From positions 29,113 to 93,112 of the forward strand of contig CAMEHU010000001.1 in assembly GCA_945917765.1 (NCBI GenBank): 64,000 nt of DNA, in the 5' to 3' direction. Numbering within the stretch: the first letter of the stretch is position 1; each line of letters opens with the position of its first letter. A model generated the notes under the pieces. That model had not been told where the DNA came from, ran no database searches, and saw only the letters and a list, made by a program, of their open reading frames with translations. The DNA is from an uncultured Lachnospiraceae bacterium. Its GTDB lineage: Bacteria; Bacillota; Clostridia; TANB77; CAG-508. Shown in pieces: positions 26,148-55,273 of the stretch. Position numbers and translations under genes: made by a program.

Positions 26148-29042
26148 TTAATTAGCTTTATAAAACTCTTTTTCCTCATCAGTTATCTTAGTTAAAAACA
26201 ATCTTGTATTTCTAAAATATCTAGTACAATCTAATGCTGCTTTTTTTATTTTATCACTTTCTGATTTATGGAAATTTGAGTAAATTATTTCATTGAAATT
26301 TCTTCTAAATTCATAGAAATATCCTCTGTCAAATTTGTTTAATAAATCATATATACCTAAAATATACTCCTCTTCAGCACCTTCAACTAAGGCTTTTTCA
26401 ATAATTTTCATTACATCAACTGAATTTAATTCCTCTTGTTTTATAGAACATAGTTCAACTAAATTTTCTAATAACGTATAGTTTCCTTTTATTAATTCAG
26501 CATTTTCAACAGCTTTTTTGTATTCTTCTGAATCAAAATTTTCATCTGGTGTATTTTCTTCTTCAGCCATTGAAATATCATCTACATCGCATTCTATTAC
26601 ATCTGTTAATTTGTAATTAGATAATTTTTCTTCAATTTTCAAGCAATCATCTATAGAATTAACATCTGATAAAATTTGATTAATAACTTCAGACATTCTA
26701 TAAACATCACCATTATCTAAACATTTAGCCATAAAAGCATATGCTTTATCATAATCTAAATTATCTAAACCTTTAATATTTTGATTTAATTCATATACTT
26801 TACTTATTCTTGTGAAATTATCATCTAATTCTTGAATAACTGCATTTGGTTCTGTAGCTAAACTAATGTTGTTTACTAAGAATTTTACATATTCAGAAAT
26901 ATTTCCACCTTCTTCATAAAATGGATCACTATTTTCTTTCAAGAACTCAAAAGATTTATCATAATTTTCTTTTGAAATACTTTCACTAATTCTTCTAATT
27001 AATACATTCATTATATTAGCAGGAATTTCAATTTCTAAATTGCTAAATAGATTTAATGCATTGTCTGGATAATAATTATAATTATCTGCAACAATTTCTA
27101 AATACTTAGTATACTCTGATTCAGAAATATAGTCTTTATTTGCGTTAATCAATGTATTTAAATTTTCAAAGTATTCTTTATCAGAAGGATTGTTTTTATA
27201 TACTTCTAATAAGTTGACAAAATTATTTGTAATAAATTCCTTCTTATCTTGTTTATTATCAAATTCCTCAGTTAATTCTAATATTTCTTGACTTGTTAAT
27301 TCAGTAAGATTTTCTTCTCCTAAAATATACGAATTAATATTTTTTCCTTTAAATAATTTTTCAGATTTTATTTTAGTTGCATACATTAATGTAGGCATAT
27401 TTTCAATTTGATAATTTCTAGTTTGTCTTAAGAAATACACAAGAGGTCTACTTTTATTTGTAAAGAATGGTTTTAAATCATCATCAATATCATTCCATGC
27501 ATTTCGTAAATCATCTGGCTCCATGCAATAATATTTTGTAATATCATCTAAATAATCGAAATCTATAAATAAAGTATTATAGAATTTTTCGAAATCCGCT
27601 TGTAGAACAGAAATCTTAGCTAATTGACATTCAAAATCCTTGCTATTTAAAATTTTATCATCAATTTTTCCGCTTTCTATTCTTTTGGCAATTAATAATT
27701 TATTATGAATATAATTATTAATTAGTTTTTTAGCATGTCTTGGTGTAACAACATTTCTATAAACTAAAACATTTCTTATAGTTTTTTCAAATGTAGCCAA
27801 ATCACTGTATTCTTCAATAAAATCAGAAGCTTCTTGTTCAACTAAATTAACTGCATAATCTTTAATATCTGTGTTTGAAAAATGTGGCACATCAAATTTA
27901 AATTGAAATACCTTATCTAAAATTCTTTCTAATTTTAGAGGTCGGTAATTTGCACCATTTTTCATTTGATTTCTAACTTTAATTGCTTTTTCTAAAATCT
28001 TGTCATCAATTGAAACTAAAATAATGCAATTAATATATTCGCTGCAATGCTTAATATCATCAAGAGTTTTTAGCATTTTAGCAACAGTTAGTTTATCAAT
28101 ATCTTCAATAATAATTATATTTTTTCTTAATGAATCTATAATTTGTGAATTAATAATTTGTTTGTTAATTATTGTTGAATTTTGAGCAATATTATTCTGC
28201 TTAATATCCATTATTTGAGCATCATTATTTATATTTAAACTTGTTCCTTTAATATTATTTTCACTATTTTTCTTTTCTGCTACAGATTTTTTAGTTGCAA
28301 TCATTAAAGTTTGCACAATGTATGCAATTGCAGTTAAGCCAAATGCGAAAATCATAATCATTAAGAAGTTTTCACGATAATTTAAATAAGTATTCTCAAC
28401 AAAGAAAACATCATTACTATAAATAGATTTATTCCCCATATATTCCATGAAAATAAAAATTAAAGTTGTAATTAAAAAACAAATTAGAAATGTTAAAACG
28501 AATTTTACAACACTAAAAATCCCTTTAACTGCTGATTTTCTTTGGTCCTTTAAATCTTCTTTTTTATCTTCTTCTATATATGCATCACTATTATAATAAT
28601 CATCAATTAAATTTTGTTTTTCTGTTTCTGAATCCACACTTTTTTGTGCATTTGCATCACTTGAAATAGCTGTAGATTGAACATTATTGGCAATGTCTGC
28701 ATTATTTAAAACAGCATTATTGTTGATATTGGCAACACATTGAACGCTTTGTACACAATTCTCATCTAATATTTGTTTTAATGTAGTTTCATTTTTCCAT
28801 ATATTAATTTTTTTAACATTATATTCTTCAGGCAAATTTTCATATTTCTCAGCAACCATATTAATTATAGAAGATTTACCAATTCCACTTTTTCCATTTA
28901 CAGATATTGCAAATGGTGGCTTTGTAGTGTCTATAATTGATATTATGTTATTAACTACATCTTTGGCTCCAAGTTTATCTTGGTTGATTGATGTGAGTTC
29001 TTCATCTTTAATAAAATATTTTTTTATTATTTCATCACTCAT
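26148..29042 (-). CDS. KAP family P-loop NTPase
   Basis: PFAISVNGKSGIGKS Walker A, two inserted TM helices, IIIIEDIDKL Walker B, LDKVFQ and TPRHAKKLIN. Confidence 0.85.
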   Translation of the reverse strand: MSDEIIKKYFIKDEELTSINQDKLGAKDVVNNIISIIDTTKPPFAISVNGKSGIGKSSIINMVAEKYENLPEEYNVKKINIWKNETTLKQILDENCVQSVQCVANINNNAVLNNADIANNVQSTAISSDANAQKSVDSETEKQNLIDDYYNSDAYIEEDKKEDLKDQRKSAVKGIFSVVKFVLTFLICFLITTLIFIFMEYMGNKSIYSNDVFFVENTYLNYRENFLMIMIFAFGLTAIAYIVQTLMIATKKSVAEKKNSENNIKGTSLNINNDAQIMDIKQNNIAQNSTIINKQIINSQIIDSLRKNIIIIEDIDKLTVAKMLKTLDDIKHCSEYINCIILVSIDDKILEKAIKVRNQMKNGANYRPLKLERILDKVFQFKFDVPHFSNTDIKDYAVNLVEQEASDFIEEYSDLATFEKTIRNVLVYRNVVTPRHAKKLINNYIHNKLLIAKRIESGKIDDKILNSKDFECQLAKISVLQADFEKFYNTLFIDFDYLDDITKYYCMEPDDLRNAWNDIDDDLKPFFTNKSRPLVYFLRQTRNYQIENMPTLMYATKIKSEKLFKGKNINSYILGEENLTELTSQEILELTEEFDNKQDKKEFITNNFVNLLEVYKNNPSDKEYFENLNTLINANKDYISESEYTKYLEIVADNYNYYPDNALNLFSNLEIEIPANIMNVLIRRISESISKENYDKSFEFLKENSDPFYEEGGNISEYVKFLVNNISLATEPNAVIQELDDNFTRISKVYELNQNIKGLDNLDYDKAYAFMAKCLDNGDVYRMSEVINQILSDVNSIDDCLKIEEKLSNYKLTDVIECDVDDISMAEEENTPDENFDSEEYKKAVENAELIKGNYTLLENLVELCSIKQEELNSVDVMKIIEKALVEGAEEEYILGIYDLLNKFDRGYFYEFRRNFNEIIYSNFHKSESDKIKKAALDCTRYFRNTRLFLTKITDEEKEFYKAN

Positions 29043-29218: not shown

Positions 29219-29554
29219 ATGTTCTATGATTATGAATATTATCCCGCTCAACCAAAAACACTCTTTCAGGGTACTGGAGCTGAATTAGCTAAAAAATTAA
29301 AAGCTAATCCTCAGTTATTTATAGTTGGCGGTGGTAATGGCTCATGGGTACTTGCAGGTTATTCATTTGGAAGAATCTATGAATTTGACAATGAATCCTC
29401 TCGTACACTCATTCGTTCAGTAACTCCTAGCAAAGATCTTATCAGACTCATGCACAACAAAACAAAAGTGACTGAGAAAGATTATCAGGTTATTGCTGAG
29501 GATCTGAATAGTGGTAAGTTGAGCTTTGATGAACTCACTAAACCTCTGTATTGA
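29219..29554 (+). CDS. Hypothetical protein
   Basis: 111 aa with an AAAGGAG RBS and its own promoter and terminator. Confidence 0.78.
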   Translation: MFYDYEYYPAQPKTLFQGTGAELAKKLKANPQLFIVGGGNGSWVLAGYSFGRIYEFDNESSRTLIRSVTPSKDLIRLMHNKTKVTEKDYQVIAEDLNSGKLSFDELTKPLY

Positions 29555-29558
29555 GCCG

Positions 29559-29597
29559 AAAAACAAGCTGGAGATTTTTTCTCCAGCTTGTTTTTTT
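29559..29597. terminator. Bidirectional intrinsic terminator
   Basis: aaaaacaagctggaga / tctccagcttgttttt perfect stem. Confidence 0.85.
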
Positions 29598-29681
29598 AGT
29601 TCAATAATAAATGTCGAAATATGTAACAACAATCGTGTTACGCATTTCGACATTTTTTGACAAATTAAATTACTAATATTA

Positions 29682-30092
29682 TTAATCTCTACTATACAAA
29701 TCCCTTGTATAAACTTTATCTTTAACAACCTCCAAAGCACTTTCTAATCTATTAGCTAAAATAACATCACTATCTTCAGAAAATTCTTCGAAATCATTTA
29801 CAACTCTACAACCATTAAACTCAGTTGCCTTTAAAGTAGGTTCATAAATAATAATTTCAACATCCTCATCTTTTAATCTTTCAATAATACCTTGAATGGC
29901 ACTTGCTCTAAAGTTATCAGAATCTGTTTTCATTGTTAATCTATAAATACCAACTACTTCAGGGTCTCTACGCATAATCATTTCAGTTATATGTTTCTTT
30001 CTAGTTCTATTAGAACGTACAATAGCTCTAATTAAGTTTTGTGGTACATTATCATAATTAGCTAATAATTGCTTTGTATCTTTTGGTAAACA
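29682..30092 (-). pseudogene. ugd: 3' fragment of UDP-glucose 6-dehydrogenase, beginning at the catalytic Cys codon
   Basis: [13 protein letters not shown]...[22 protein letters not shown]...KVYTRDLY is the HasB/Ugd C-terminus. The expected upstream GYGGY is replaced by unrelated sequence. Confidence 0.9.
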
Positions 30093-30165
30093 ACCTGTCG
30101 CTTCTATTGTGTGTAATATTCTTAACAAAAACCAAAAGAAAACCTGTATTTATGCAGGTTTTAAG
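30085..30165. other. Putative att junction and terminal palindrome
   Basis: ugd homology stops at 30092/30093; the palindrome aaaacctgtatttatgcaggtttt overlaps the last recombinase stop codon. Confidence 0.6.
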
Positions 30166-31847
30166 TAACTTTTGTTTTTCTTGACATATTTTAGTAAATT
30201 TTGATAAATATCTTGATATTTAAAAACAATCTCGACTTTTTTATCTTCAAAAATATATATGCATTCTATAAATTTAAAAAGTATATCTCTATCAATTTTC
30301 TTAAATAATTCTCTATTGTTAAAAAGTTTTATTAAATCAACTTGATAGTTTGGAATATTATCTAATTCTTCCAATTCCTTATCAATTATTTTAATTGTTT
30401 CTCTAATTTCTAAAATTTCATTATTATATGAACTTGAATAATTTTTATAATCTTCAAAAGTTATTATTTCTTCTTTCCAATCTGTATATAAAGATTGTTT
30501 TAATTTCATTTTTTGGTTAATACTTTCTGATAAAGTATTTTTTCTTTCTAGCAGAATATCTCCTTTTATTGATAATTTTTTATTTTTAGAAATCAATTCT
30601 AAATCATCATTTAATTTGGTAACTAACTTTATTTGCTTGTTAATTGATTTTCTTACAATTTCAATTAAATCGTCTTCTTTTATTCTATGAGGAGTACAGC
30701 CCTTTGAATTAACTTTATTAGTACCACATATATAATATTTTAATCTACTTCCATCTTTTCTTGGTCTTCTACTCTCTAAATAATAAAGTCCTCTATGACA
30801 ATCATTACAAATTAAAAAGCCTGAAAACAAAGCGTAATCATGATTTTTTCTTCTTATTTGAATTATCTTTGAATAATACTTTTCTTGAATCCATTTAAAA
30901 TCTTCTTTACTTACTAATGCTTCATGGGTATTTTCAACTCTAATCCAATCTTCTTTTTCTACATCTATTCTTTTCTTCAACTTATAACTTATTTTATTCT
31001 TTTTATTTTGAATTAAGTTACCTGTATAAATTTCATTTCTTAATATATTTGATATAATTCTTGGATTCCATTTTATTTCATCAATATTTTCATCTGTTAC
31101 AATATTAGTCTTATAAGATTGACCTTTTTGCTTTTTATATTGAGAAGGTGTTGGAAATTTTCTTTCGTTAAGATAATCTGCAATCTGAATTGCTGTTTTA
31201 TTATTTAATGCTAATTCAAAAATCAGTTTCACTATTTTTGCACCTTCCATATCAATTAGCAAATGATATTTATTATCTGGATCTTTTCTATATCCAAATG
31301 GTACATGTGCAGCTATATATTCTCCCTTTTTTTGTTTTATTCTATATACAGATTTTATCTTTCTTGAAATATCTCTTGCGTATTCATCATTAATAAGATT
31401 CTTGAAATTTACTAACATACTGCTCGATGACTCAGGATTTTTAAAGCTATCTATTTTATCAATTATTGATATGAATCGTACCCTCATAGTTGGAAAAGTA
31501 TCTTCTAAAAATCTTCCAACCTCTACATAGTTCCTGCCAAACCTTGATAAATCTTTAACTATGATTGTATCGATTTTACTTTTTTTTAAATCTTTTAACA
31601 TTTCTTGAAATCCTGGTCTATTGAAACTTGTGCCAGAATATCCATCATCTACATATTCACTAATAAAAACCAAATCTTCATTACTATCAATATACTTTTT
31701 TATAATTCTTCTTTGATTTTCTATACTATTACTCTCTGTATCTTTTTTAATTTTGTCTTCTTGGGATAATCTCAAATATATTCCAACTTTAAATAAAGTA
31801 TCATTTTCATTTCTATATCTCGAAATAGACATTTTCATCACCTCCAT
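30150..31847 (-). CDS. Large serine recombinase (4th in operon)
   Basis: YLRLS catalytic motif, DDGYSG, RPGF, DLSRFGRN, recombinase domain, Zn ribbon CNDC, coiled coil. Confidence 0.93.
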   Translation of the reverse strand: MEVMKMSISRYRNENDTLFKVGIYLRLSQEDKIKKDTESNSIENQRRIIKKYIDSNEDLVFISEYVDDGYSGTSFNRPGFQEMLKDLKKSKIDTIIVKDLSRFGRNYVEVGRFLEDTFPTMRVRFISIIDKIDSFKNPESSSSMLVNFKNLINDEYARDISRKIKSVYRIKQKKGEYIAAHVPFGYRKDPDNKYHLLIDMEGAKIVKLIFELALNNKTAIQIADYLNERKFPTPSQYKKQKGQSYKTNIVTDENIDEIKWNPRIISNILRNEIYTGNLIQNKKNKISYKLKKRIDVEKEDWIRVENTHEALVSKEDFKWIQEKYYSKIIQIRRKNHDYALFSGFLICNDCHRGLYYLESRRPRKDGSRLKYYICGTNKVNSKGCTPHRIKEDDLIEIVRKSINKQIKLVTKLNDDLELISKNKKLSIKGDILLERKNTLSESINQKMKLKQSLYTDWKEEIITFEDYKNYSSSYNNEILEIRETIKIIDKELEELDNIPNYQVDLIKLFNNRELFKKIDRDILFKFIECIYIFEDKKVEIVFKYQDIYQNLLKYVKKNKSYLKPA

Positions 31848-31907
31848 TACAATTTACTTTATTTTGATTGTTTGTACGATTGTGTCATTTTATATTTTGC
31901 ACATTAT

Positions 31908-31935
31908 AAAAGCAGAGCTTCAATTTACTCTGCTA
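31908..31935 (-). terminator. Possible terminator/attenuator between the 3rd and 4th recombinase
   Basis: Minus-strand agcagag..ctctgct stem followed by a short T tract. Confidence 0.5.
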
Positions 31936-33597
31936 TGTATTCTTTTTAATCTTTTTTGCTAACTTCAATAATTTTTTATATTCATCTTGATATTTAAATT
32001 CAATTTCAATAGTTCCGTCTTCATTTGAATAAATATTATTTATTAAATCATCAATTAACTTTTTATTAAGTGTTTTAATATTTTCATACTCTTTTATATT
32101 TTTAAATATTTCCTTATTATCATTTAGCTTTTCTTCTTCTTCCAATTTTTCAGAATATTTCTTGTATCTATCATTTAATATGTTAATTGTTTTTTCTGCA
32201 CCATTAACATATTTCATATATTCTTCTTTTGTAATAATACCAAGTTTCCAATCTTCATAAAACTTTTGCTTTATTTTCCTTTTTTCTTTCATTTCTTTTT
32301 CAATTCTTTCAATTGTTGCTTTTGTATCATTATCAGTTCCTTGATTTATTATTTCATCAATTAATTTGTCTGCTTTGAGATATAGTTTAATTTGATGTTT
32401 TATTGCTTTTAAAACAATCTTATCTAAATTTTCACTTCTAATCATATTTTTTATACATTCATTTCTAGAAATATTAGTATAGGTAGAACAATAATAATTG
32501 TAATTCATAATTTCTGGATTACTTCTTCTATGTCCTGTATATTTTCTAATCATAAATTTTTTACATTTACCACATTTCAAATGTCCTGCATATAAATTAG
32601 GCTGGCTTTTAATTGCACCTGTATATTGTTTTTCTTCTAATATCTTTTGAACTTTTTTAAATTCCTCTCTTGTAATTATTGCATCATGTGTATTTTCGAC
32701 AATGATCCATTCTTCTTTATCTGTTCTTATTGATTTATGGTTTTTATGACTTAAACATTTTTGTTTGCCTTGAATCAAATCACCACAATATACTTGATTT
32801 TCTAATATAGATTTAACCGATTGAATAGTCCATTTTTTATTAGAAATTGTTTCTTCTGTACAACTGGGATTTCCATATTTTAAATTTTGAACTTCTTTTT
32901 TATATCTTGAAGGGCAATAGATGTCATTATCGTTCAAATACCTTACTATAGCGCCATATCCTTCTCCATCTATGAATTTTTTATATATTAATTTTATTAT
33001 TTTAGCTGCTTCGTCATCAATTATAAACTTATGCTTATCCTCTGGGTTTTTGATATAGCCATAAGGAGCAAGTCCTTGCATAAAATTTCCTTTTTTAGCC
33101 CCAATAAGTTTAACACTTCTAATTTTTCTAGATATATCTCTACAATACTCTTCATTTATCATATTTTTAAAAGGAAATATCATGCTATTTAGTGATTCAG
33201 GATTTTTAAAATTATCTATTTTATCACTTATTGATATAAATCTAATTTTGTACTGAGGAAATACTTGTTCAATAAAATTTCCAACTTCAATATAGTTTCT
33301 ACCAAACCTTGACAAGTCTTTAACTATAATTGTATTTATAGATCCTTTTTGAATATCATCTAGCATTCTTTGAAAAGAAGGTCTTTTAAAGTCTGTTCCA
33401 GTAAAGCCATCATCTATATAATAATCATATAATTCAATATCACTCTCATTTTTTAAGTAATAATCAATTATTTCTCTTTGACTTGTCACAGAATTGCTTT
33501 CTTCTTTATCACCATCTTCTTGGCTTAATCTTATATATGCAGCACAATTAAATTTTTTCTTAGTTATTTCATTCGACTTATATCTACTTTTCCCCAT
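31933..33597 (-). CDS. Large serine recombinase (3rd)
   Basis: YIRLS, DDGFTG, DLSRFGRN, Zn ribbon CGKC. Confidence 0.93.
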   Translation of the reverse strand: MGKSRYKSNEITKKKFNCAAYIRLSQEDGDKEESNSVTSQREIIDYYLKNESDIELYDYYIDDGFTGTDFKRPSFQRMLDDIQKGSINTIIVKDLSRFGRNYIEVGNFIEQVFPQYKIRFISISDKIDNFKNPESLNSMIFPFKNMINEEYCRDISRKIRSVKLIGAKKGNFMQGLAPYGYIKNPEDKHKFIIDDEAAKIIKLIYKKFIDGEGYGAIVRYLNDNDIYCPSRYKKEVQNLKYGNPSCTEETISNKKWTIQSVKSILENQVYCGDLIQGKQKCLSHKNHKSIRTDKEEWIIVENTHDAIITREEFKKVQKILEEKQYTGAIKSQPNLYAGHLKCGKCKKFMIRKYTGHRRSNPEIMNYNYYCSTYTNISRNECIKNMIRSENLDKIVLKAIKHQIKLYLKADKLIDEIINQGTDNDTKATIERIEKEMKEKRKIKQKFYEDWKLGIITKEEYMKYVNGAEKTINILNDRYKKYSEKLEEEEKLNDNKEIFKNIKEYENIKTLNKKLIDDLINNIYSNEDGTIEIEFKYQDEYKKLLKLAKKIKKNT

Positions 33598-35191
33598 TGC
33601 TTATCTCCTTACTAAAATTTCTTATCATTTCATATACATCATTATTCAAATATATAATTTCAATTGATTTATCTGATTTTACATATATTACTTCAATCAA
33701 TTCTTCTAATATTTTTTCATTAAGTTCATCTAAATTACGATATTTCTTAAAACATCTTATAAAATCTTTAATAATTCTTTTGTCATGTGATAATGTGAAT
33801 TCCTTTTCTTTAAGTTTGTTTAATTCTTTCAAAAGTTTCTTCATTTCGTTATTGTATGTTTCAAAATAAAAATCATAATCGTCATTTGTAATTAAATCTT
33901 TCTTTAAATCGTACAAAATTTCTTTTTTTAAATTTTCTAATTCTTCCATTCTCTTATTTTTTAAAGATATTTCATCTGCAATTTTAACTAATTCTTCATT
34001 ATCATGCATAGAATCGAGTTTATTAATTTCAAAATCTATTAGAAATTCTGTATCACTATTTATTTTCTCAATTACTTTACTCATTAATTCTTCATATTTA
34101 ATACTTCTGCTTAAGCAAAGTTTCTTTGACATTCTTTTATAAGTGAAACAATTATATACCAAATAAGTTTTATCTTTGTATTTGTTGCATGATGTTTTAA
34201 CCATATTTTTTTTACAATCATAGCATTTTAAATATCCTCTAAAGATTGAGTTAAAAACATTTCTTTTTAACTTTGTAGCTGTCGTCCTAGATAAGATACA
34301 TTCTTGAGCTTTTTTGAATGTTTCTTTATCTATTATTGGCTCATGATGATTTTCAACTCTAATCCAATCTTCTTTTGGCACAGGAACACTAACTCTTACT
34401 TTATTATTTAGTGTGGTAGTTTTTCCTTGAACTAAAGTGCCACAGTAAACTTCATTTTTTAGAATATTACTTATTTTTGTAGAATCCCAATAATATTTTT
34501 TAGAATGCTCAACATTATTTCTTTTACAAAAATGTTCTTTTGGACAATCAATATTTTCTTCATTTAGTTTATAAGCAATTTTTGTTGAGCTTTCTCCTGC
34601 AATGCACATTTCAAATATCATTGTAATTATATCTTTAACTTCTAAATCTATAACATAGTTTTTATCTTTTAATAAATATCCATATGGTGCAGAACCACTG
34701 GTTATTTCTCCATTCAACCTTTGTACTTCTTTTACTTTTTTTACTTTTCTAGCAATATCCCTACAATATTCATCGTTCATTAGATTTTTAAATGGTACTA
34801 TTACGCTATTTAAAGACTCGGGATTTTTAACATTATCAATGTTGTCATTAATAGATATAAATCTTATTCCCATACTTGGGAATATATAATCTATATATCT
34901 TCCAACTTCGATATAGTTTCTACCAAATCTTGATAAATCTTTAACTATAATGCAATCTATTTTTTTATCATACATATCTTTCATCATTCTTTGAAATCCT
35001 GGTCTATCAAAATTTGTTCCAGTTCTGCCATCATCAGAATAATATCCGTAAATCGAAATATCATCTTGCTCGTCTATAAATTCGTTAATTAAATCCCTTT
35101 GATTCTTTATAGAATTGCTTTCTTCAAATTTGTTGCCATCTTCTCTCGAAAGTCTTATATAGGCTCCAGCTTTATAAATTTTTTTATCCAT
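33584..35191 (-). CDS. Large serine recombinase (2nd)
   Basis: YIRLS, DDGRTG, DLSRFGRN, Zn ribbon CYDC. Confidence 0.93.
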   Translation of the reverse strand: MDKKIYKAGAYIRLSREDGNKFEESNSIKNQRDLINEFIDEQDDISIYGYYSDDGRTGTNFDRPGFQRMMKDMYDKKIDCIIVKDLSRFGRNYIEVGRYIDYIFPSMGIRFISINDNIDNVKNPESLNSVIVPFKNLMNDEYCRDIARKVKKVKEVQRLNGEITSGSAPYGYLLKDKNYVIDLEVKDIITMIFEMCIAGESSTKIAYKLNEENIDCPKEHFCKRNNVEHSKKYYWDSTKISNILKNEVYCGTLVQGKTTTLNNKVRVSVPVPKEDWIRVENHHEPIIDKETFKKAQECILSRTTATKLKRNVFNSIFRGYLKCYDCKKNMVKTSCNKYKDKTYLVYNCFTYKRMSKKLCLSRSIKYEELMSKVIEKINSDTEFLIDFEINKLDSMHDNEELVKIADEISLKNKRMEELENLKKEILYDLKKDLITNDDYDFYFETYNNEMKKLLKELNKLKEKEFTLSHDKRIIKDFIRCFKKYRNLDELNEKILEELIEVIYVKSDKSIEIIYLNNDVYEMIRNFSKEISNGEK

Positions 35192-36806
35192 AGTTTATCT
35201 CCTTTCCTATCATTTCTAATATTTTCTTGTTTATATCGTTATATTTAAATTTTATTTCTATTTTATTATTTTCAAATACATATATTGTTTCAATTAATTC
35301 ATCTACAGTTTCTCTATCCAATGAAGTGATATTACAAAATTGCTTATACTTCACAATATAATTATCTATTGTTTCGTCTTTCATGCCATTAAGTTTATCT
35401 TCAAATTCTTTAATTTTATTATTAATTTCATTTATGCTTTTAGAATAATTTTCTACAAATATAAAATAATCATTTTGAGATATAATGTTTTTTTTCCAAT
35501 CCATATATGATTCTCTTTTCAATACATCTAATTTTGATAATTCTTCATTTAGTTCTTTTATTTTCTCTTTATACTCTGCTTTCATTTCTTCTTTTCTATT
35601 TTCAGCATAAATTTTTTTTATTAATTTTTCTTGTTCTAAAACAAGTTTAGTTTGATTTTGAATTGCTTTTAATACTAAATCTTCTAAAACTTCATATTTA
35701 ATACCATGTCTTGTACATAAATTATGAGATTTTCTTGTATAAGTTGAGCAATAATAGTGAACCACTCTTGATCCATCTTTTCTTATAGTGCCAGATGTAT
35801 TTTTATGCATAGCACATTTACAATCACCACACTTAACTTTCCCTGCAAATGTTGATATTGTCCCATCATGATTACATTTCCATCCTCGGCTATCTAACAT
35901 CTTTTGAACTTTATCAAAATCATTATAACTTACTAATGCTTCATGAGTTCCTTTTACAATAATCCAATTTTCTTTGCTGTTTTTTACTCTTTTGTGTATT
36001 TTATAGCTAACTGTCTTATATTTACATTGAACCATTTCACCTAAATACACTCTGTTTCTTAATATATGAGCAACCATACTATCATTCCAATAGTTGCTTT
36101 TACCACTATTTCTATAATTACATTTGATTTTTAAAACATTTATTTTATGAAGTGATGGAGTATTTATTCCATCTTTATTTAATTTTCTGGCAATTGCTGT
36201 TGTTCCTAATCCTTTTAGTGCATTTTTAAATATTTTTTTTACAACTTTTGCAGCCTCGTCATCTATAACCAATTTATGTTTGTCTTCGGTACTTCTAATA
36301 TATCCATAAGGAATCATTGAACCCATAAATTCGCCATTTCTTTTTCTTGTATTTAATGCATATTTAACTTTTTGTGATATATCTCTACAATATTCGTCAT
36401 TCATTAAATTTTTGAAAGGTACTATAATACTGTTTATTGATTCTGGATCTTTATAACTATCTATACAATCATTAATCGCAATGAATCTAATATTATTAAC
36501 AGGAAATATCTGCTCTAAATAGTTACCAACTTCAATATAGTTTCTACCAAATCTTGATAAATCTTTTACTATAATGGTATTTATAACATTATTTTCGACA
36601 TCAGCAATTAATCTTTTAAAATCTGGTCTGTCAAAATTTGTTCCAGACCATCCATCATCAATATAATAGTCATATACATTTAGTTCTTTATCCTCACTAA
36701 TATAACTATTAATAAGTTCTCTCTGATTTGTTACAGAATTACTTTCTTCTTTATCTCCATCTTCTTGACTTAATCTAATATATATTCCAACATTCCATTT
36801 ATTCAT
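35184..36806 (-). CDS. Large serine recombinase (1st)
   Basis: YIRLS, DDGWSG, DLSRFGRN, Zn ribbon CGDC. Confidence 0.93.
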   Translation of the reverse strand: MNKWNVGIYIRLSQEDGDKEESNSVTNQRELINSYISEDKELNVYDYYIDDGWSGTNFDRPDFKRLIADVENNVINTIIVKDLSRFGRNYIEVGNYLEQIFPVNNIRFIAINDCIDSYKDPESINSIIVPFKNLMNDEYCRDISQKVKYALNTRKRNGEFMGSMIPYGYIRSTEDKHKLVIDDEAAKVVKKIFKNALKGLGTTAIARKLNKDGINTPSLHKINVLKIKCNYRNSGKSNYWNDSMVAHILRNRVYLGEMVQCKYKTVSYKIHKRVKNSKENWIIVKGTHEALVSYNDFDKVQKMLDSRGWKCNHDGTISTFAGKVKCGDCKCAMHKNTSGTIRKDGSRVVHYYCSTYTRKSHNLCTRHGIKYEVLEDLVLKAIQNQTKLVLEQEKLIKKIYAENRKEEMKAEYKEKIKELNEELSKLDVLKRESYMDWKKNIISQNDYFIFVENYSKSINEINNKIKEFEDKLNGMKDETIDNYIVKYKQFCNITSLDRETVDELIETIYVFENNKIEIKFKYNDINKKILEMIGKEINYG

Positions 36807-37042
36807 ATTCTAATTCCCCATTCTGGAATAATAATGTTTGAAATTTTAACACCATTCCAATATTTAATCTTAATATTTGCACATTTATTTTGAAAAATTT
36901 TATTTTTAATTTCTCCCATTGTTATATACTCTCTTTTTATTTTTGCTAAAGTCTGTGAAATCATATTTATATTTAATACACTATCTTCAGTTTCTTCTTT
37001 TTTGCTAATTCTAACGTACATAGCAAACTTCAATTCATTCAT
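36803..37042 (-). CDS. 79-aa protein starting with a serine-recombinase catalytic-strand motif
   Basis: FAMYVRISKKEETEDS parallels GIYIRLSQEDGDKEES; GAAGGGAG RBS; ATGA overlap with recombinase 1. Confidence 0.65.
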   Translation of the reverse strand: MNELKFAMYVRISKKEETEDSVLNINMISQTLAKIKREYITMGEIKNKIFQNKCANIKIKYWNGVKISNIIIPEWGIRI

Positions 37043-37120
37043 ATTTTTCTCCCTTCGGCTACATAATATCTAAAATTTAAAGACCAAGCCAATGTGCGAT
37101 TCTGGAATTTTTATACTTGA

Positions 37121-37408
37121 TTATTTATTAATAATTTGCTTTATAGCATTATGAATACAGTCCTCAGCCTCCACTCCATTTTCTTGATATGAAAATTTAA
37201 CAACATAACCATCAATATTAAAAAAATAAGGATTACTAACTTTTTTTAAAAAGTCAATAACCCTTTCTTCTGGTTCTAAATTTTCATCTATTTTTATATT
37301 ATCTATATTATCTATTTCACTAACATTAATGTTTTTAATATTCATACTTTTGTAATTATTTATTTTACTTTCGATTTCTTTTTGTTCTTCTAAACTCAAC
37401 GATCTCAT
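37121..37408 (-). CDS. DUF6870-like small protein that typically precedes serine recombinase clusters
   Basis: IKIDENLEPEERVIDFLKKVSNPYFF...VVKFSY pattern and position. Confidence 0.65.
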   Translation of the reverse strand: MRSLSLEEQKEIESKINNYKSMNIKNINVSEIDNIDNIKIDENLEPEERVIDFLKKVSNPYFFNIDGYVVKFSYQENGVEAEDCIHNAIKQIINK

Positions 37409-37607
37409 AATTACCTCCTTCTAAAACTTTTATTCTGTAGCATTCTAAATAAAATTCATTTTTTTTATAATTCCAGATAGAGGATTTCATAACTACATCA
37501 AGCACCTTTTCTTTAGCCTCATTCATATTATGTGCTTGCAACATCATATTTTCTTTTTGGTTATTATGGACAATACAAACTAGATAATTAAATAATCTTT
37601 CTCTCAT
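37365..37607 (-). CDS. Hypothetical protein
   Basis: 80-aa ORF with a GGAGG RBS, overlapping both neighbours. Confidence 0.6.
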   Translation of the reverse strand: MRERLFNYLVCIVHNNQKENMMLQAHNMNEAKEKVLDVVMKSSIWNYKKNEFYLECYRIKVLEGGNYEIVEFRRTKRNRK

Positions 37608-37705
37608 TGCTTATCCTCCCAAGAAGAACATCTACTTGAAACTATACAAGCAGCATAACAAAATATTGCTATTATCAAAAATATTATTCCTATTATTATA
37701 ATCAT
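37604..37705 (-). CDS. Unannotated 33-aa single-TM peptide MIIIIGIIFLIIAIFCYAACIVSSRCSSWEDKQ
   Basis: AGGAG RBS inside the mazF 3' end; ATGA overlaps at both ends. Confidence 0.55.
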   Translation of the reverse strand: MIIIIGIIFLIIAIFCYAACIVSSRCSSWEDKQ

Positions 37706-38079
37706 TTACTTTTCCTCCTAAATTCCAAAGTTTTTTCTAATCCTTTATTTATCTTTTTTATAGTTTTATTATTTGCTCTACCTATAAATTCATTCTTAAT
37801 TCGGCTTTTATCTAATACTCTTATTTGTTCTAATAAAATAACTGAATCATACTTCAGCTTTCCAAATTTTTTTATATTTATATGAGATGGCAAATTTGGT
37901 TTATTGTTTATTTTTTTAGTAAGTGGTGCAATTATAACGGTTGGATTTTTCCAGTTTCCTTTATCAGTTTGTACAACAATTACTGGTCTAATTCCACCTT
38001 GTTCACTACCTATTTTAGGTTCTAAATTTGCATAAAAAATTGTGCCTTTTAAATATCTCAAAACTACTCCTTCCTTCAT
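37702..38079 (-). CDS. PemK/MazF family toxin (no adjacent antitoxin)
   Basis: GSEQGGIRPVIVVQ, IIAPLT, ILLEQIRVLDKSR; the real start is probably TTG at 38061. Confidence 0.88.
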   Translation of the reverse strand: MKEGVVLRYLKGTIFYANLEPKIGSEQGGIRPVIVVQTDKGNWKNPTVIIAPLTKKINNKPNLPSHINIKKFGKLKYDSVILLEQIRVLDKSRIKNEFIGRANNKTIKKINKGLEKTLEFRRKSK

Positions 38080-38139
38080 GTAAAAAGGTCAAACATAATT
38101 TGACCTTTATTGATTTCATTATATTTATTATTGTTAATA

Positions 38140-38285
38140 TTTTTCCTTGAACCCCTTAACACTGGGAAATCATCAAACGATTGAAAGCTACTTCAATTCC
38201 ACGAGAATTTCACTCTCTTGTGGTTCTCACAAGACTGCCCCCATTGCGTGAGTCTGTGGCTAGGCAGGAGTATCATTATTACTAT
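38140..38285 (-). ncRNA. Candidate structured RNA leader upstream of the mazF-recombinase operon
   Basis: GC-rich non-coding island with several stems, including GAGAG-TGAAA-TTCTC (T-loop-like) and agact/agtct. Confidence 0.4.
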
Positions 38286-38512
38286 TATTAATCTTCGCAT
38301 ATTAGGAGCAACCTAATTTTATAATCAAATATTAATCGACATGCGTATTTATTAATGTGCTTTTAATAATAGGAATGTATTTGATGAATGTATATAAAAT
38401 TTTCAAAGATCATAAAGTTTCTTAGCTTTAAAAATAAAAGCGAGGAACTTTGAAAGGACTTTATTCCTTTCAATTGTTTCCTCACTTAAATCAGAAATCG
38501 GAACCTATTTTT

Positions 38513-38992
38513 TTAAATTAATTTATTTTTTTCAAAATAACATTTAATTTTATTTCTTCCTTGTTCTAATGATTTTCGAATCATTCTATCTGAACAATGC
38601 TCTAATGTTGCTATTTGAGAAGTTGTTAATTCTTCAAAATAAAACATTTTAATTCTTCTTTTTATAGTTTTTGGTAATTCATTAATTGCTTTCATTAAAT
38701 CTTCATACCTAGATTTTTTTATAAAGTCATCTTCAATACTACCATAAATAAGATTTGCTCTTTTATATAATGTTTCTTCATACACTTCTGATCTTTCTTT
38801 ATGCCTTTCATCTTTATTCATTTGAGATTTATCTTCTAGTTCAAATTCATTAAAAGCCTCAAATTGTTTTTCTGTAACTTCTACAGTATTTAATATATTT
38901 TTTACATCTTTAAATTCAACATAGTATTTATTATTAATTACTAATAATGTATATGGATTATCTTTACTTTTCCTTCTTTTAGGTCTATTCAC
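38513..38992 (-). CDS. Sigma-70 region-4 domain regulator (Tn916 Orf7-like)
   Basis: AINELPKTIKRRIKMFYFEELTTSQIATLEHCS region-4 HTH; GTG start after GGAGG. Confidence 0.82.
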   Translation of the reverse strand: MNRPKRRKSKDNPYTLLVINNKYYVEFKDVKNILNTVEVTEKQFEAFNEFELEDKSQMNKDERHKERSEVYEETLYKRANLIYGSIEDDFIKKSRYEDLMKAINELPKTIKRRIKMFYFEELTTSQIATLEHCSDRMIRKSLEQGRNKIKCYFEKNKLI

Positions 38993-39058
38993 CTTTATTC
39001 CTCCAATCAATCTAAATTTTTTAAATTGATTGGAATAGGTGGACTTCTACACCTAAAA

Positions 39059-39075
39059 ACCGACATTTTTCGACA
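39059..39075 (-). promoter_or_regulatory. Tandem Spo0A-like boxes upstream of the ICE sigma-like gene
   Basis: Minus strand reads TGTCGAA-aaa-TGTCGGT. Confidence 0.45.
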
Positions 39076-39505
39076 AAGAAAAAAGCCAGTCGTAAAAACG
39101 TTTTTGTCTTTACAACTGACTTTAACATCAAAATTATTTAATTTTTGAGGGTATTTATCCCACGAATATTCAATATAAATAAAACAAAATAAAATTTTAA
39201 CATAGTTGAAAACTCTCATAAGGCGAATGTCCTCCTTATGTAGAGCTAATGTCTTATAAGAGCTATCACAAAAGAATTTATTTGTCCTTTGTAACTCTTA
39301 ATATTAAATTTTATTTCTTTTTATTCTTTAAATATATTTACAATACATATATCAACTAGCCACCATTATGACATTGCTGCTACTTGGGTTGTATTATATA
39401 CTTTTTTCCTACAAATTTCATTATATTTAAACATTTTCTTAAAAATTGTTAATTTTAAGTATAAAAAAAGAAACACAACTCAAATGTGCTTCTTCACAAT
39501 TAAAA

Positions 39506-40612
39506 TTACTGATCGTTCTTTAACAGCTTTTGAGATTTGTCTATGTCAATAAAATAAATCATTTCCAATATTAAAATAAAATTATATTGATATGAATAAT
39601 TATTTTCAAAAATACCATATAAAGAAAATAATATAAACACCAAAGATATCATTTTGTTTTTGGAAATTTTTTTGGCAACAGAAAAATTAATTATTATATA
39701 TAATGTAAATATTATAATTCCATCAATATATAAATGAGTTAAATATACATTATCTAAAGGAAAACCCGTAATAATAGATTTATCAAACAAACCTATATTA
39801 TATGTTGTGACATATTTATTCCAAAAATATAGCCTATTACTTAATATCTCATTTAACTTTCCAAATTGTAAATATTTACTTGCGAGAAAAATAGATATAA
39901 TTGTTAATATAAAATAACTATATTTCATATATTTCTCATACTTATTACTGCTAATTTTATCTGTTATTAGATTTAATATAGCCAAAATAATTGCAATTAA
40001 AAATCCTGTTCTACACAAAGTGATTTTATAAAAAAATAAACTAATCAAAAATATTATAAATGATACTTTTATTTTTTTAGCCAGTACATAATCTTTTTTA
40101 TATATCATAAATGAGGCAAATATTGGTATTAAGCACAAAAACAAAATATTAATTCCAGCAAAACCAAAGCTGTATCTTGTCACTATACCATCAGCCATTA
40201 CTCGTGCAGAATTGTTAGATGGCAAAATGCCAATCAAATATAAAAGAATTGTACATATAAATAATAATAATGAATTTATAAAATAATATTTTATAAATTT
40301 TTCATCTCCATTTTCTTCTACAGAAAATATAATTGCAAATATAATTGCAAATAGGAAATCGAATTTTGGATTAATAAAAACTATAATGCCTCCCATTATT
40401 AAAAGACAAATTACTTTTTTAAAATCCTTTTTTCTTATTTTATAGCTCAATATCGAAATAAACGAAACAAGTATAAATAATGTCATAATTATTGTCGGTG
40501 TTTCAAATTTTCCGACAAACAAATAATTCCACATTGAAAAATATTTTAAAAATAATGCTACAAAAACAATAACAAACAAAATCAAATTCTTTGGCTTTAT
40601 TTTCATTTTCAA
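39506..40612 (-). CDS. Wzy-like polysaccharide polymerase
   Basis: About 10 TM segments, RYSFGF, CRTG, SNRLYFW, PLDNVY; last gene of the glycosyltransferase cluster. Confidence 0.72.
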   Translation of the reverse strand: MKMKIKPKNLILFVIVFVALFLKYFSMWNYLFVGKFETPTIIMTLFILVSFISILSYKIRKKDFKKVICLLIMGGIIVFINPKFDFLFAIIFAIIFSVEENGDEKFIKYYFINSLLLFICTILLYLIGILPSNNSARVMADGIVTRYSFGFAGINILFLCLIPIFASFMIYKKDYVLAKKIKVSFIIFLISLFFYKITLCRTGFLIAIILAILNLITDKISSNKYEKYMKYSYFILTIISIFLASKYLQFGKLNEILSNRLYFWNKYVTTYNIGLFDKSIITGFPLDNVYLTHLYIDGIIIFTLYIIINFSVAKKISKNKMISLVFILFSLYGIFENNYSYQYNFILILEMIYFIDIDKSQKLLKNDQ

Positions 40613-40618
40613 ACCTCC

Positions 40619-41641
40619 TTATCTAGAACCAGTAATTACATTATAAAATTTAGGCAACATTTTATTTATAATCTTTGAAATTAATTGTATCAACCACACT
40701 GTTAATATTATAGTTAAAATGTATACTATTATTGAAACATAAGAATTATATCCTAAAATAATAAATAAGATTTTTCTTACTACTTTTATAACAGGCAAGT
40801 GAATACAATAAATAAAGAAACTTATTTTTTCAATATTATATATTTTATACTTATATAAACTAAACATATCCAAAATAGATAATAAAATAATAGGAGATAA
40901 CATTCTATAAATATAATATATCCTTGATGTTTCTTCAAAAGTAGATACAATAATTGCAAACAAAACATATAAAATTATAAATATTGGTAACTTGCTTTTT
41001 TTATTTTTAACAATATTTTCTTTTATGTCATAATCTTTGCTATGTATTCCCATATTTGCACCAAATAGATATATTGGCAACCAAAATATTGGATTAGAAT
41101 ATCCAAATTTAAATATCAAATTTACTGTTAAACATATAAGCATAATAATATAGTTTAATTTTTTTGACTTTTTCATTATAAAATATATTGCAGGTGCTAA
41201 AAAACTATAAATTATTAAATCACGTACAAACCACATACCTTCAGCACAATTAGCCATCAAAATATTTTGAAAAATATGACTTATACCAAGTTCAAATGTA
41301 TTATTAAATAATGTGTTTACCTTAGGAATTAAACAAATTAATTCATAATATATTAAGAAAAATATTGACCAAAAAAAGTATGGAATAACCAACGAAAAGA
41401 ATCTGCTTTTATATTTTTCTTTTATTTTTGAAAAGTCGAAATTTCTGTAAAATAAATAAGCTGATAATATAAAGAATGCTGGAACACTTGCATCACACAT
41501 TACAGAAATAATTTTATATATTTTTGTTATCATAAAATTATTATCGCTAATAAATCTCAAACAATTAGAATGCAATATTACAATTAATAATACAAGAATA
41601 AAATTAATATGTGTTATTTTTTTTGATACATTTTTATTCAC
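40619..41641 (-). CDS. Acyltransferase-3 family (O-acetyltransferase)
   Basis: VILHS, VPAFFILSAYLF, LVIPYFFWS, MWFVRDL, SFFIYCIH. Confidence 0.85.
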   Translation of the reverse strand: MNKNVSKKITHINFILVLLIVILHSNCLRFISDNNFMITKIYKIISVMCDASVPAFFILSAYLFYRNFDFSKIKEKYKSRFFSLVIPYFFWSIFFLIYYELICLIPKVNTLFNNTFELGISHIFQNILMANCAEGMWFVRDLIIYSFLAPAIYFIMKKSKKLNYIIMLICLTVNLIFKFGYSNPIFWLPIYLFGANMGIHSKDYDIKENIVKNKKSKLPIFIILYVLFAIIVSTFEETSRIYYIYRMLSPIILLSILDMFSLYKYKIYNIEKISFFIYCIHLPVIKVVRKILFIILGYNSYVSIIVYILTIILTVWLIQLISKIINKMLPKFYNVITGSR

Positions 41642-43041
41642 TTTTTTCGTTCCTTTCCTAAAAAATCATATTTTATATAATTAAAATTAATACAGAAATA
41701 AAATAATGCAGAAATAGATACTTGTAATAATAATTTTAAATATATATTTTTTATCAAACATCCTATAACTATAATTATAAGTGCCATGGCTATACATTTA
41801 TATAAATATTTTATAAAAAATTTAATCACATTTTTATAATCAATAAAATTCTTTGTACACACAATTTGATAAAGCATAACAAAAAATTCAGCTACTATGG
41901 TACCAATGCACGCACCATATGCACCATATTTCCTTATAAATATTAAATTTAGCACAAAATTCACAACAGCTCCAATAATAGTTGAATATACATAGATGTT
42001 GTCTTTTTCTTTTGGGATTAAATAGCTTGTTCTAATAACATTTGCAATTGATGTGAATATTACAGTTGGAATTAGAAGTTTGATAATATTACCAGTAATC
42101 TCAAATTCCTTTCCAAAGAAAATTGTTGAAAAATCAGAACTTACTAAGAATATTCCAAAACACATAGGCATAATAAAGAAAAATGTTAATCTAAATGTAT
42201 CCATTATCTTTCTTTCATATTCTTTATCATTGGTTTTTGACATGTGTGGCAACATTACTGTACCTAAAGCTGTTATAAAACTAATAGGAATATTAATTAT
42301 CTTTTCAGCACTCTCATAGTTTCCAAGTTCAATAGTATTTGAAAACATTCCAATCATAGTTTTATCCATAACTCTGTATATAGAATATGCTATTATAGGA
42401 ATAAACAATATCAAGCAAGGCTTCAAATTCTTCATAATTTCTTTAAATGATGGTTTACTAAATTTAATATATTTTTTTATATACAACCATAAATAAGCTT
42501 GACTAATAAAAGTACTTCCACTCATCAATAGAGTATATTTCCACAAATCATTGCTATCTTTTACAAATACAAAAGTTAAAATTAATGAAAGTACTTTTAT
42601 TATAATATTTCTACTAATAGTAATTTTAAACTTTTCTATCCCAAAGAAAAACCAATTAATATCCAATAGCACACTTAGTAAAAAAATAGATTGTATTAAC
42701 ATTATTTTCAAATTATATCTATACATAAAAAATATAAATATATAGTAAGCAGCAATCATTATAGATGTCAAAATAAATTGTAAACAATAAATATTAATAA
42801 AATTTTCTGACATTTTTTCTTTATCTTCACTGCTTTTAGCTATTTTTCTCGATCCATAATTATTTATTCCAATTAAACCACATAACATAAAATAGTAAAC
42901 TATTGAATATGTATAAGAATATATCCCTACATTTTCAACACCTAATGCTCTAGAAATATAAGGCGTTGAAATTAGTGGAATGATGAAAATAAAAATTTGA
43001 TACACTATATTATACATAAAATTTTTATTTGTTGTTTTCAT
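41638..43041 (-). CDS. wzx: Wzx oligosaccharide flippase
   Basis: KNFMYNIVYQ...PYISRALG, MDKTMIG, LGTVMLP, YGAYGACIGT. Confidence 0.88.
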   Translation of the reverse strand: MKTTNKNFMYNIVYQIFIFIIPLISTPYISRALGVENVGIYSYTYSIVYYFMLCGLIGINNYGSRKIAKSSEDKEKMSENFINIYCLQFILTSIMIAAYYIFIFFMYRYNLKIMLIQSIFLLSVLLDINWFFFGIEKFKITISRNIIIKVLSLILTFVFVKDSNDLWKYTLLMSGSTFISQAYLWLYIKKYIKFSKPSFKEIMKNLKPCLILFIPIIAYSIYRVMDKTMIGMFSNTIELGNYESAEKIINIPISFITALGTVMLPHMSKTNDKEYERKIMDTFRLTFFFIMPMCFGIFLVSSDFSTIFFGKEFEITGNIIKLLIPTVIFTSIANVIRTSYLIPKEKDNIYVYSTIIGAVVNFVLNLIFIRKYGAYGACIGTIVAEFFVMLYQIVCTKNFIDYKNVIKFFIKYLYKCIAMALIIIVIGCLIKNIYLKLLLQVSISALFYFCINFNYIKYDFLGKERKK

Positions 43042-44167
43042 TGTCTCTTCCACCAACACTTTCCCTCAAATATTTTATTGCCTCCATCTGCAATTCTTTT
43101 ATTTGATTATTGTATTCGGAATAATCCACATCTTTTAAATAATTAAAATTATTATCAAAATCATATGCAATAAGTCTATCTAGCATTTTCAATTGTGATA
43201 AAAGAGTTATAACTCTGTCATCATCTCCATACATATCTCCATTTTTTATAGTAAAAAATTTCTTATTATAAATAGTCGAAAATATTGTTCCATGAAACGA
43301 AGTAGTTAATACTAAATCAGCATTTTTTATATAGTATAAATAAGATGATGGATTTTCGTATTTAGCAAGTTCAAAGCCGAATCTTTTTATCATTCTTGTG
43401 CTATATGATTTACAACTCCATGTTATTACTTTCAAATTATATTTTTTTGAAATTTTCTTTACATATTTACATATATTTTGATTAAAACTTGGACAATAAA
43501 AAAATATATATTTTTCTTTTTCATTAATATCATTAGCAAGTATTTCATCATAGCAAGTTGCTGTTAAAATTAAAGTTGGATCTATTAGTACAGGCACATC
43601 TTTATTAATCATATCTTTAATCCATTTTTGTCCATTTCTTTCACGTATAGATAAATAATCATAGTTCATTAAATATTTTTTATATTTTTCAGGATTTTTC
43701 GCATATTTTAGTATATTTTTTGAACCAAAGCTTGGTGCATAAGCAACTTTTTTTGCACTATTTACCCATGGCAAAAAATATGCGTCGTCTGCATCTGGAA
43801 TAGTCACATTCCAAATTTGGTCACTCCCAGAAACAATACAACTATAATCTTTATCATTTAGTTCATTCATATTATTAAATTTATTTTTTGATAAATGAAA
43901 ATTTTTATCTCTAAATTCTTCGTATTTCATATTATTCATTTTTAATTTTCTATGATTAGGCAACAATAAAATATTCTTTAAAATATTTTTCAAAGAGTTA
44001 TTCTTAAAAAATATTTTATATAAATTTTTTTGACCTTCATTAGAAAAATCTATTATTTCTACATTATCACTGCAATATTTTTCAATGGATTTTTGCATTG
44101 CATATGATTCAAGCATAGAACCACAATTATATGAATTATGAAACGTTATTATTCCTATCTTTTTCAT
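43025..44167 (-). CDS. Polysaccharide pyruvyl transferase family protein
   Basis: ITFHNSYNCGSML, SGSDQIWN, YAPSFG, SIRE, DPT, TSFHGTIFS. Confidence 0.88.
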   Translation of the reverse strand: MKKIGIITFHNSYNCGSMLESYAMQKSIEKYCSDNVEIIDFSNEGQKNLYKIFFKNNSLKNILKNILLLPNHRKLKMNNMKYEEFRDKNFHLSKNKFNNMNELNDKDYSCIVSGSDQIWNVTIPDADDAYFLPWVNSAKKVAYAPSFGSKNILKYAKNPEKYKKYLMNYDYLSIRERNGQKWIKDMINKDVPVLIDPTLILTATCYDEILANDINEKEKYIFFYCPSFNQNICKYVKKISKKYNLKVITWSCKSYSTRMIKRFGFELAKYENPSSYLYYIKNADLVLTTSFHGTIFSTIYNKKFFTIKNGDMYGDDDRVITLLSQLKMLDRLIAYDFDNNFNYLKDVDYSEYNNQIKELQMEAIKYLRESVGGRDNENNK

Positions 44168-44179
44168 TTTTTTCTCCTT

Positions 44180-46125: not shown

Positions 46126-46138
46126 TTTCTTTCCTCTC

Positions 46139-50322: not shown

Positions 50323-50339
50323 TATTTACCACCTACTTT

Positions 50340-52673: not shown

Positions 52674-52676
52674 GAA

Positions 52677-53021: not shown

Positions 53022-53023
53022 AC

Positions 53024-53716: not shown

Positions 53717-53718
53717 AA

Positions 53719-54030: not shown

Positions 54031-54041
54031 ACTAACACCTC

Positions 54042-55269: not shown

Positions 55270-55273
55270 ATAT

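Follow-up and report, generated by a model that had tools for sequence, protein, structure and literature searches.

Do four large serine recombinases (LSRs) that lie side by side at the end of one mobile element share a single recombination reaction, or does each of them work on its own? The question is raised by a 64,000-nucleotide stretch of DNA (hereafter the window; positions 29,113 to 93,112 of contig CAMEHU010000001.1, i.e., G000:C1:29113-93112) from an uncultured Lachnospiraceae bacterium (assembly GCA_945917765.1; 1.82 Mb in 77 contigs, GC ~25%). The four genes, named R1 to R4 here, form the integration module and are the last genes at the right end of a probable integrative and conjugative element (ICE) carrying a conjugation module and polysaccharide cargo. 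The comparisons described below indicate that they are inherited as a set, and they lead us to favor, tentatively and at slightly less than an even chance, the reading that R1-R4 act together as a co-operating multi-subunit serine integrase.

The array consists of four intact head-to-tail genes, all on the minus strand (30150-36806), each recognized from its open reading frame (ORF) and Pfam domains: R1, the innermost member (35184-36806; 540 aa), R2 (33584-35191; 535 aa), R3 (31933-33597; 554 aa), and R4, the outermost gene of the element (30150-31847; 565 aa). All four proteins exceed the Pfam cut-offs for the Resolvase, Recombinase (PF07508), and Zn_ribbon_recom (PF13408) domains, and all four possess the features that define LSRs (a Resolvase domain with the nucleophilic serine, PF07508, and PF13408). 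The columns Y-x-R-L-S (which includes the nucleophilic serine), D-D-G-x-x-G-T, R-P-x-F, and K-D-L-S-R-F-G-R-N-Y are invariant in the R1-R4 alignment, as are three cysteine columns of the zinc ribbon; the fourth cysteine is present in each protein and is offset by one column by the aligner in R4. A first-pass annotation, made from the DNA without database searches, had described four tandem LSRs with intact catalytic and zinc motifs, and on this point the ORFs, Pfam domains, and alignment all agree. Weak matches to DUF4368 occur in R1 (24.7 bits) and R2 (23.8 bits), both under the Pfam cut-off of 25, and R3 and R4 have no DUF4368 match at E<=0.001.

R2-R4 share 40-45% identity with R1, and the similarity among the paralogs is unevenly distributed. 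The same annotation had pointed to DNA similarity around the DLSRFGR codons of each gene; the four sites it named all lie within one family of 300-nt direct repeats (31355-31654, 33120-33419, 34741-35040, and 36365-36664) that are 70-75% identical to the reference copy. The C-terminal divergence that it reported is likewise borne out, since identity is 53-61% for the catalytic domain but drops to 26-44% across the DNA-binding domains (recombinase domain 35-44%, zinc ribbon 26-41%) and is 26-35% over the remainder of the protein. Three short metagenome contigs (L145, L149, and L163; coverage 1.2-1.7 where the contig name states it) are hybrids in which the body of one paralog follows the start, or the region upstream, of a different one; the joins lie in the 300-nt catalytic-domain repeat and represent either unequal recombination between paralogs or assembly chimeras.

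The spacing of the genes suggests that they are expressed in two groups. R1 and R2 overlap by 8 nt and R2 and R3 by 14 nt, so that start and stop codons overlap, whereas an 85-nt gap (31848-31932) separates R3 from R4. On the minus strand this spacer region contains a hairpin resembling a terminator (31911-31934) together with a promoter-like site (31861-31888), and a further terminator-like hairpin spans the R4 stop codon (30139-30162, minus strand); these are consensus matches only. R4 thus appears to be transcribed separately from R1-R3.

Evidence that the four genes form one inherited unit comes from two relatives, a diverged four-member array (L293; 66-77% protein identity) and a five-member array from a rumen assembly (L046). 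The L293 array contains one-to-one orthologs of R1 (72% identity), R2 (66%), R3 (73%), and R4 (77%) in the same order, compared with 36-44% identity for non-orthologous pairs, and the hairpin between R3 and R4 (AGCAGAG...CTCTGCT-TTTATA) is kept after its R3 ortholog. The L293 element also resembles that of the window beyond the array, with a coupling protein ~21 kb upstream (G452) and a syntenic conjugation module. In L046, five tandem LSRs stand behind the same sigma factor, MazF, and DUF6870 genes, and this gene order (sigma, MazF, DUF6870, array) is common to the window, L046, and L293. A quick IQ-TREE phylogeny built from 46 sequences places R2 as sister to member 3 of L046 and R4 as sister to member 5 (97 and 99, respectively, by the Shimodaira-Hasegawa-like approximate likelihood ratio test, SH-aLRT), while R1 pairs with member 1 only in FastTree (support 89). 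The R4 ortholog of L046 overlaps the preceding gene and is therefore within the coupled array. Comparisons with copies from other samples, which contain no indels, give ratios of nonsynonymous to synonymous substitution (dN/dS) of 0.087 for R1 (against L140), 0.03-0.11 for R2, 0.085-0.15 for R3, and 0.05-0.07 for R4, so purifying selection acts on each of the four genes (overall dN/dS range 0.03-0.15). Together, the gene content and order of the relatives indicate that the four genes have been co-inherited as one unit, without a change of order, while the ICE lineages diverged to 66-77% protein identity. A locus search with R4 alone returned 2 loci, and, apart from partial hits to shorter ORFs, a protein search of 400 genomes of the order yielded no relative of R4 above 43% identity. 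R4 is unlikely to have been accreted recently, because near-identical copies exist, L293 has the orthologs in order together with the same element end (described below), and the gene is under purifying selection.

The right end of the element is defined by a disrupted gene. Immediately beyond R4 lies a 3' fragment of ugd (UDP-glucose 6-dehydrogenase; 29682-30090, minus strand; Pfam UDPG_MGDP_dh_C), which starts at the catalytic-cysteine motif C|LPKDTKQ. This fragment, the last third of the gene, is 74% identical to the final 136 residues encoded by an uninterrupted open frame of 393 codons from a genome of the same genus (G036), and homology to that intact ugd begins at the catalytic-cysteine codon (GGYC|LPKD). 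Only 58 nt separate the R4 stop codon from the point at which ugd homology begins, which makes R4 the outermost gene, and a TG dinucleotide (30091-30092) sits within the catalytic-cysteine codon at this junction. The element-side arm of the junction, ACACAATAGAAGCGACAGGTTG (30091-30112, minus strand), includes this TG, at which we infer that crossover takes place.

At least three different genes serve as targets to which this element end is joined. Besides the ugd allele in the window, it abuts a different ugd allele in L139 (94.7% DNA identity to the window), an frhB-like ferredoxin-motif gene in L138 (98.6%; junction at L138:4054), and, in L293 (78.7%; junction at L293:11756), a large kelch-like gene that lies beside ugd and is intact in another genome (G462). 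The arm is identical in the window, L138, and L139 and matches at 21 of 22 bases in L293, giving a consensus over the four contexts of ACACAATAGA(A/G)GCGACAGGTTG, and the flanks diverge directly after the TG. Among intact proxies of the three targets (ugd, frhB-like, and kelch-like), the shared bases are limited to the TG core plus a GA at -5/-4. The whole array is also present in the sample that yielded L138, since R1 and the first part of R2 are found, at 98.2% identity, on a second contig of that sample (L140). The first-pass annotation had reasoned that a fourth recombinase from a separately accreted element with its own att (attachment) sites would undo its proposal; R4 adjoins the sole att-like junction detected, and no second copy of the arm was found within the array. 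In L046, the element is joined to a 3' fragment of vanZ (junction at ~18330). An unrelated metagenome contig (L166:3770-3830) contains 61 nt that match the 3' end of R3 (window 31970-32029) at 96.7% identity, situated ~200 nt downstream of a PD-(D/E)XK_2 gene and ~1.4 kb past an intact ugd.

Arrays of this size are not confined to the present lineage. For each fetched locus, array size is the number of LSR ORFs (450 aa or longer) in the longest co-oriented series with gaps below 400 nt. Because the loci were selected for their similarity to the query, and many arrays reach a locus end, the numbers are counts rather than frequencies. With query A1, the 80 loci from genome contigs comprise 1 of size 0, 48 of size 1, 30 of size 2, and 1 of size 5, and the 80 loci from viral contigs comprise 4 of size 1, 30 of size 2, 35 of size 3, and 11 of size 4. 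Query A2 gives, for 79 loci from genome contigs, 4, 57, 6, 6, 5, and 1 arrays of sizes 0 to 5, and, for 27 loci from viral contigs, 3, 7, 4, 2, and 11 arrays of sizes 0 to 4. Four or five full-length tandem LSRs are thus found in 29 of 266 loci, representing 28 distinct contigs (L046 and L294 are the same) and 11 clusters at 90% first-member identity, and the earlier statement that four is unusual has to be given up. Three of the four-member arrays come from cultured isolates (Blautia luti MSK.16.34, Dorea amylophila H5_25, and Blautia acetigignens Sanger_28), and Vescimonas fastidiosa MM35 (RefSeq) has three full recombinase genes and a split fourth behind a DUF6870 gene. Triplet-type arrays (IMG/VR) resolve into three positional clades of 20, 19, and 19 leaves with no solitary LSR inside, while several fourth members of other four-member arrays group with solitary LSRs, which implies that four-member arrays arose in more than one way. 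A PF07508 search of 151 genomes gave 587 matches and was not used as a census. No literature on four tandem serine recombinases in one element was found, although the supplementary tables of PMC4701971 and PMC10083194 may list such arrays. The locus is a conserved four-member variant of a known multi-LSR integration module and is not unique.

Of the ways in which such a module could function, co-operation of the paralogs fits best, because it accounts for co-inheritance in a fixed order, the coupling of R1-R3, intact catalytic centers alongside diverged DNA-binding domains, and the use of one arm for several targets. Under this reading, the paralogs would share one reaction in the manner of CcrA and CcrB: the catalytic domains would remain compatible with one another, and the diverged recombinase and zinc-ribbon domains would divide among them the recognition of dissimilar att half-sites. 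R4, expressed from its own promoter, would most likely read the conserved element-side arm beside its own gene, and R1-R3, produced from one translationally coupled operon, would supply the remaining contacts. A hint of such a division of labor may be seen in the zinc ribbon, for which the identity to L293 is 92% in R4 compared with 62% in R1, 62% in R2, and 77% in R3. The strong conservation of this domain alongside a shared arm (21 of 22 bases), while the target differs, suggests that R4 reads the arm. The first-pass annotation had gone further and proposed a heterotetramer with one subunit per half-site; we do not commit to a strict 1:1:1:1 form, against which the three- and five-member arrays and the conserved terminator-like hairpin before R4 argue.

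Known systems offer partial parallels. CcrA and CcrB, the paired recombinases of SCCmec (staphylococcal cassette chromosome mec), are LSR paralogs that lie side by side on one element and provide a precedent for a shared recombination reaction. Misiura et al. are said to have found in 2013 that both proteins are required and that they bind different half-sites. Unlike the present array, they form a pair, use the single target rlmH, serve a non-conjugative cassette, and are distant in sequence. The SCCmec att sites, as presented in the accessible part of PMC13739063, have dissimilar half-sites, three of them alike and one within rlmH. Bxb1, phiC31, and A118/LI have the same plan of catalytic domain, recombinase domain, and zinc ribbon and the same crossover at a central dinucleotide, but a single protein reads all four half-sites in those systems according to the available text of Rutherford et al. 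2013 (PMC3783163), whereas here four diverged paralogs are inherited as a set.

The nearest analogs in organization are the serine integrase triplets of streptococcal ICEs, whose members cluster by position, implying an ancestral multi-gene module, in the portion of Ambroset et al. 2016 (PMC4701971) available to us. As there, adjacent co-oriented LSRs stand at the end of an ICE and a protein-coding gene is disrupted, and positional clustering is found here as well (one-to-one orthologs in L293; R2 and R4 pairing with positions 3 and 5 of L046). The differences are that the triplets have exactly three members as opposed to four here and five in L046, and that the present lineage has at least three target genes. 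Modules of the streptococcal type are marked by direct repeats of 2-8 bp at both ends; at the right end here, the shared core is TG. The first-pass annotation had called for a phylogeny against known triplets; positional clades were recovered in IMG/VR arrays, and R1-R4 fall in a different superclade from the triplet positions in our tree. The closest named relative is TndX (~36% identity to R1). The DUF4368/TndX-TnpX-like clade includes multi-targeting LSRs, and one of its members, Cp36, integrates alone in human cells, as reported in the available sections of Durrant et al. 2022 (PMC10083194). Closely related elements in different target genes are a shared property, although the LSRs described in the accessible text of PMC10083194 are single, self-sufficient proteins. 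Multi-targeting is there (in the same part of the paper) reserved for more than three targets; in our small sample, two are found at >=90% LSR identity (>=94% DNA identity; ugd and frhB-like), and the third (kelch-like) appears only at 66-77% protein identity.

Several observations weigh against co-operation. The left junction was not found, and attP, attB, and their half-sites are consequently not reconstructable. In the search for that junction, Pfam, tblastn, and blastn recovered no 5' ugd part from the assembly of the window, with no ugd piece at the left part of the ICE on contig C2, and the 5' part of the kelch-like target was likewise not found in the G452 assembly (G452:C14:22500-24200). 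An inverted copy of the 22-nt arm (with up to 6 mismatches) is absent from the first 100 kb of G452:C14 and from contig C2 of the same assembly as the window; on contig C1, the arm itself was recovered along with a single match, at 6 mismatches, that is distant from the ICE. The contigs of four runs gave no credible joint indicative of excision or of a circle, all listed joints having sides of 20-24 nt, and the thin coverage across 29404-30004 was given no weight. The missing 5' target parts may result from later deletion by homologous recombination or from a different unit of mobility; in G462 (G462:C30), the intact kelch-like target is immediately adjacent to ugd and the same polysaccharide cluster. 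Also counting against co-operation, R3 has no L046 ortholog in the trees, and because related modules hold two, three, four, or five members, no fixed rule of one subunit per half-site can apply to all of them. That R4 follows a conserved terminator-like hairpin and has a promoter-like site of its own would also fit an autonomous R4. Finally, several targets need not mean several paralogs, since the relatives include multi-targeting LSRs, with Cp36 integrating alone (available part of PMC10083194).

The best-surviving alternative, although somewhat unlikely, is a repertoire of independent integrases, in which each paralog acts as a lone homotetramer with its own targets and the array widens the host or target range. 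Arrays that are 98-99% identical in DNA lie in two genes and a relative at 66-77% identity in a third, and the three attB proxies are alike in little beyond the TG core and GA at -5/-4; the three kinds of junction nevertheless use the same arm and TG, so that domains only 26-44% identical would each need to read one arm, and no further arm-like site lies near the array. The low identity of the DNA-binding domains, an array size that ranges from 2 to 5, and the fact that LSRs of the DUF4368/TndX clade work singly (as far as the available text of PMC10083194 describes) all suit independent integrases. Positional orthologs held in a fixed order across a long divergence, and triplet-clade members that were never found alone, speak against them.

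It is unlikely that R4 alone is the integrase of the ICE and that R1-R3 form a separate operon with another job, such as excision control, multimer resolution, or recombination at other sites. In favor of this reading, R4 adjoins the att end, has its own promoter-like site, and has the most conserved DNA-binding domains, with a zinc ribbon conserved at 92% together with the adjacent arm. The terminator-like hairpin that accompanies the promoter-like site between R3 and R4 is kept in L293, and the fourth member of other four-member arrays clusters with solitary LSRs, the first three falling into positional clades. Such a separation is difficult to reconcile with L046, in which the R4 ortholog overlaps the preceding gene, or with the retention by R1-R3 of full catalytic and DNA-binding domains under purifying selection, and no other site for R1-R3 was found within the array.

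A more specific form of shared function, a combinatorial integrase, is quite unlikely. Here one or two paralogs, R4 above all, would read the constant element arms, the others would be exchangeable readers of the host arm, and synapsis of unlike dimers would allow one attP to recombine with several unrelated attB sites. If so, gaining, losing, or swapping members (e.g., four versus five genes, or R3 without an L046 ortholog) would retarget the ICE, and part of the multi-targeting reported for the clade would be a property of arrays rather than of relaxed single-protein specificity. It is highly improbable that the array is a pile-up of integrases from neighboring insertions with some members as passengers, as might be suggested by an LSR-rich genome (14 PF07508 matches in 1.82 Mb), by low-coverage short contigs that join parts of different paralogs (L145 and L149), and by the resemblance of fourth members of some other arrays to solitary LSRs, since the R1/R2 and R2/R3 overlaps leave no space for att sites, the same four genes occur in the same order in L293 at 66-77% identity, all four are under purifying selection, and the array and end arm move as one piece into different genes.

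The remainder of the window places the co-inherited array within a larger element whose genes are likewise on the minus strand. Upstream of R1 are genes for DUF6870 (37121-37408), a MazF/PemK-like toxin (37702-38079), and a sigma-70 region-4 protein (38513-39010), the latter two syntenic with the array in L046 and L293. These are followed by polysaccharide-synthesis cargo (glycosyltransferases, flippase, pyruvyl transferase, and acyltransferase; 39506-48327) and by the conjugation module (VirB4-like ATPase, PrgI, coupling protein, relaxase, NikA/MobC, and Toprim; 48658-64000, extending past the window), all assigned from Pfam. The conjugation domains recognized in the window are relaxase, T4SS-DNA_transf, TraG P-loop/AAA_10, and PrgI. 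The module is syntenic with G452:C14, and the left part of the ICE runs on into contig C2 of the same assembly (G000:C2:57-14332), where it abuts vanZ and cpsB/D/C. The presence of ugd just upstream of the sigma factor gene in L046 and L293 had suggested a small 9-kb mobile unit reaching from the sigma factor gene to R4; this unit was not adopted because 39120-39500 is spanned by contigs of other studies that run on into the polysaccharide cluster and because the coupling protein of G452 lies ~21 kb upstream. Contigs from four further studies tile 30090-45000 and link the recombinase module to the polysaccharide cluster across that interval, and three of the contigs from these studies diverge from the window at 30037-30091. 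The stretch is present in 19 runs from 14 studies, 5 of these being possible sources of this DNA.

The DUF6870 gene may be more than a chance neighbor. Of the 70 arrays with at least two full-length LSRs, 64 have a DUF6870-like ORF no more than 1.5 kb upstream, compared with 27 of 67 single LSRs, and examples include L046:9618-9902 and L252:8529-8771. DUF6870 is a conserved companion of tandem LSR arrays and a candidate accessory or directionality factor. Elsewhere in the assembly, the 14 PF07508 matches include others on contigs C55, C6, C24, C25, C36, C38, C12, C19, and C10, with a second tandem pair on C55 (566 and 559 aa). Downstream of R4, the ugd fragment is followed by a KAP-family P-loop NTPase gene (964 aa; 26148-29042) and an unassigned 111-aa ORF on the other strand (29219-29554), and by sporulation genes. 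Farther along, dxs is present as two overlapping ORFs (6068-7946), one with DXP_synthase_N (6813-7946) and one with the transketolase pyrimidine-binding and C-terminal domains (6068-6868), a split that is possibly a frameshift or an assembly error.

Multi-gene serine integrase modules have been catalogued before, as the pairs of SCCmec and the triplets of streptococcal ICEs. The present locus offers a tractable case for how paralogs may divide the work, with a four-member set, a mapped arm and crossover core, three natural targets, a diverged orthologous set, and analogous arrays in Blautia and Dorea isolates. The polysaccharide cluster that the element carries, together with its junctions in genes of surface and polysaccharide loci, suggests a route by which surface polysaccharide genes may be exchanged in gut Clostridia. 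If the paralogs do read different half-sites, LSR specificity could be split into modules, with a bearing both on target choice by ICEs and on efforts to design integrases that act at asymmetric sites.

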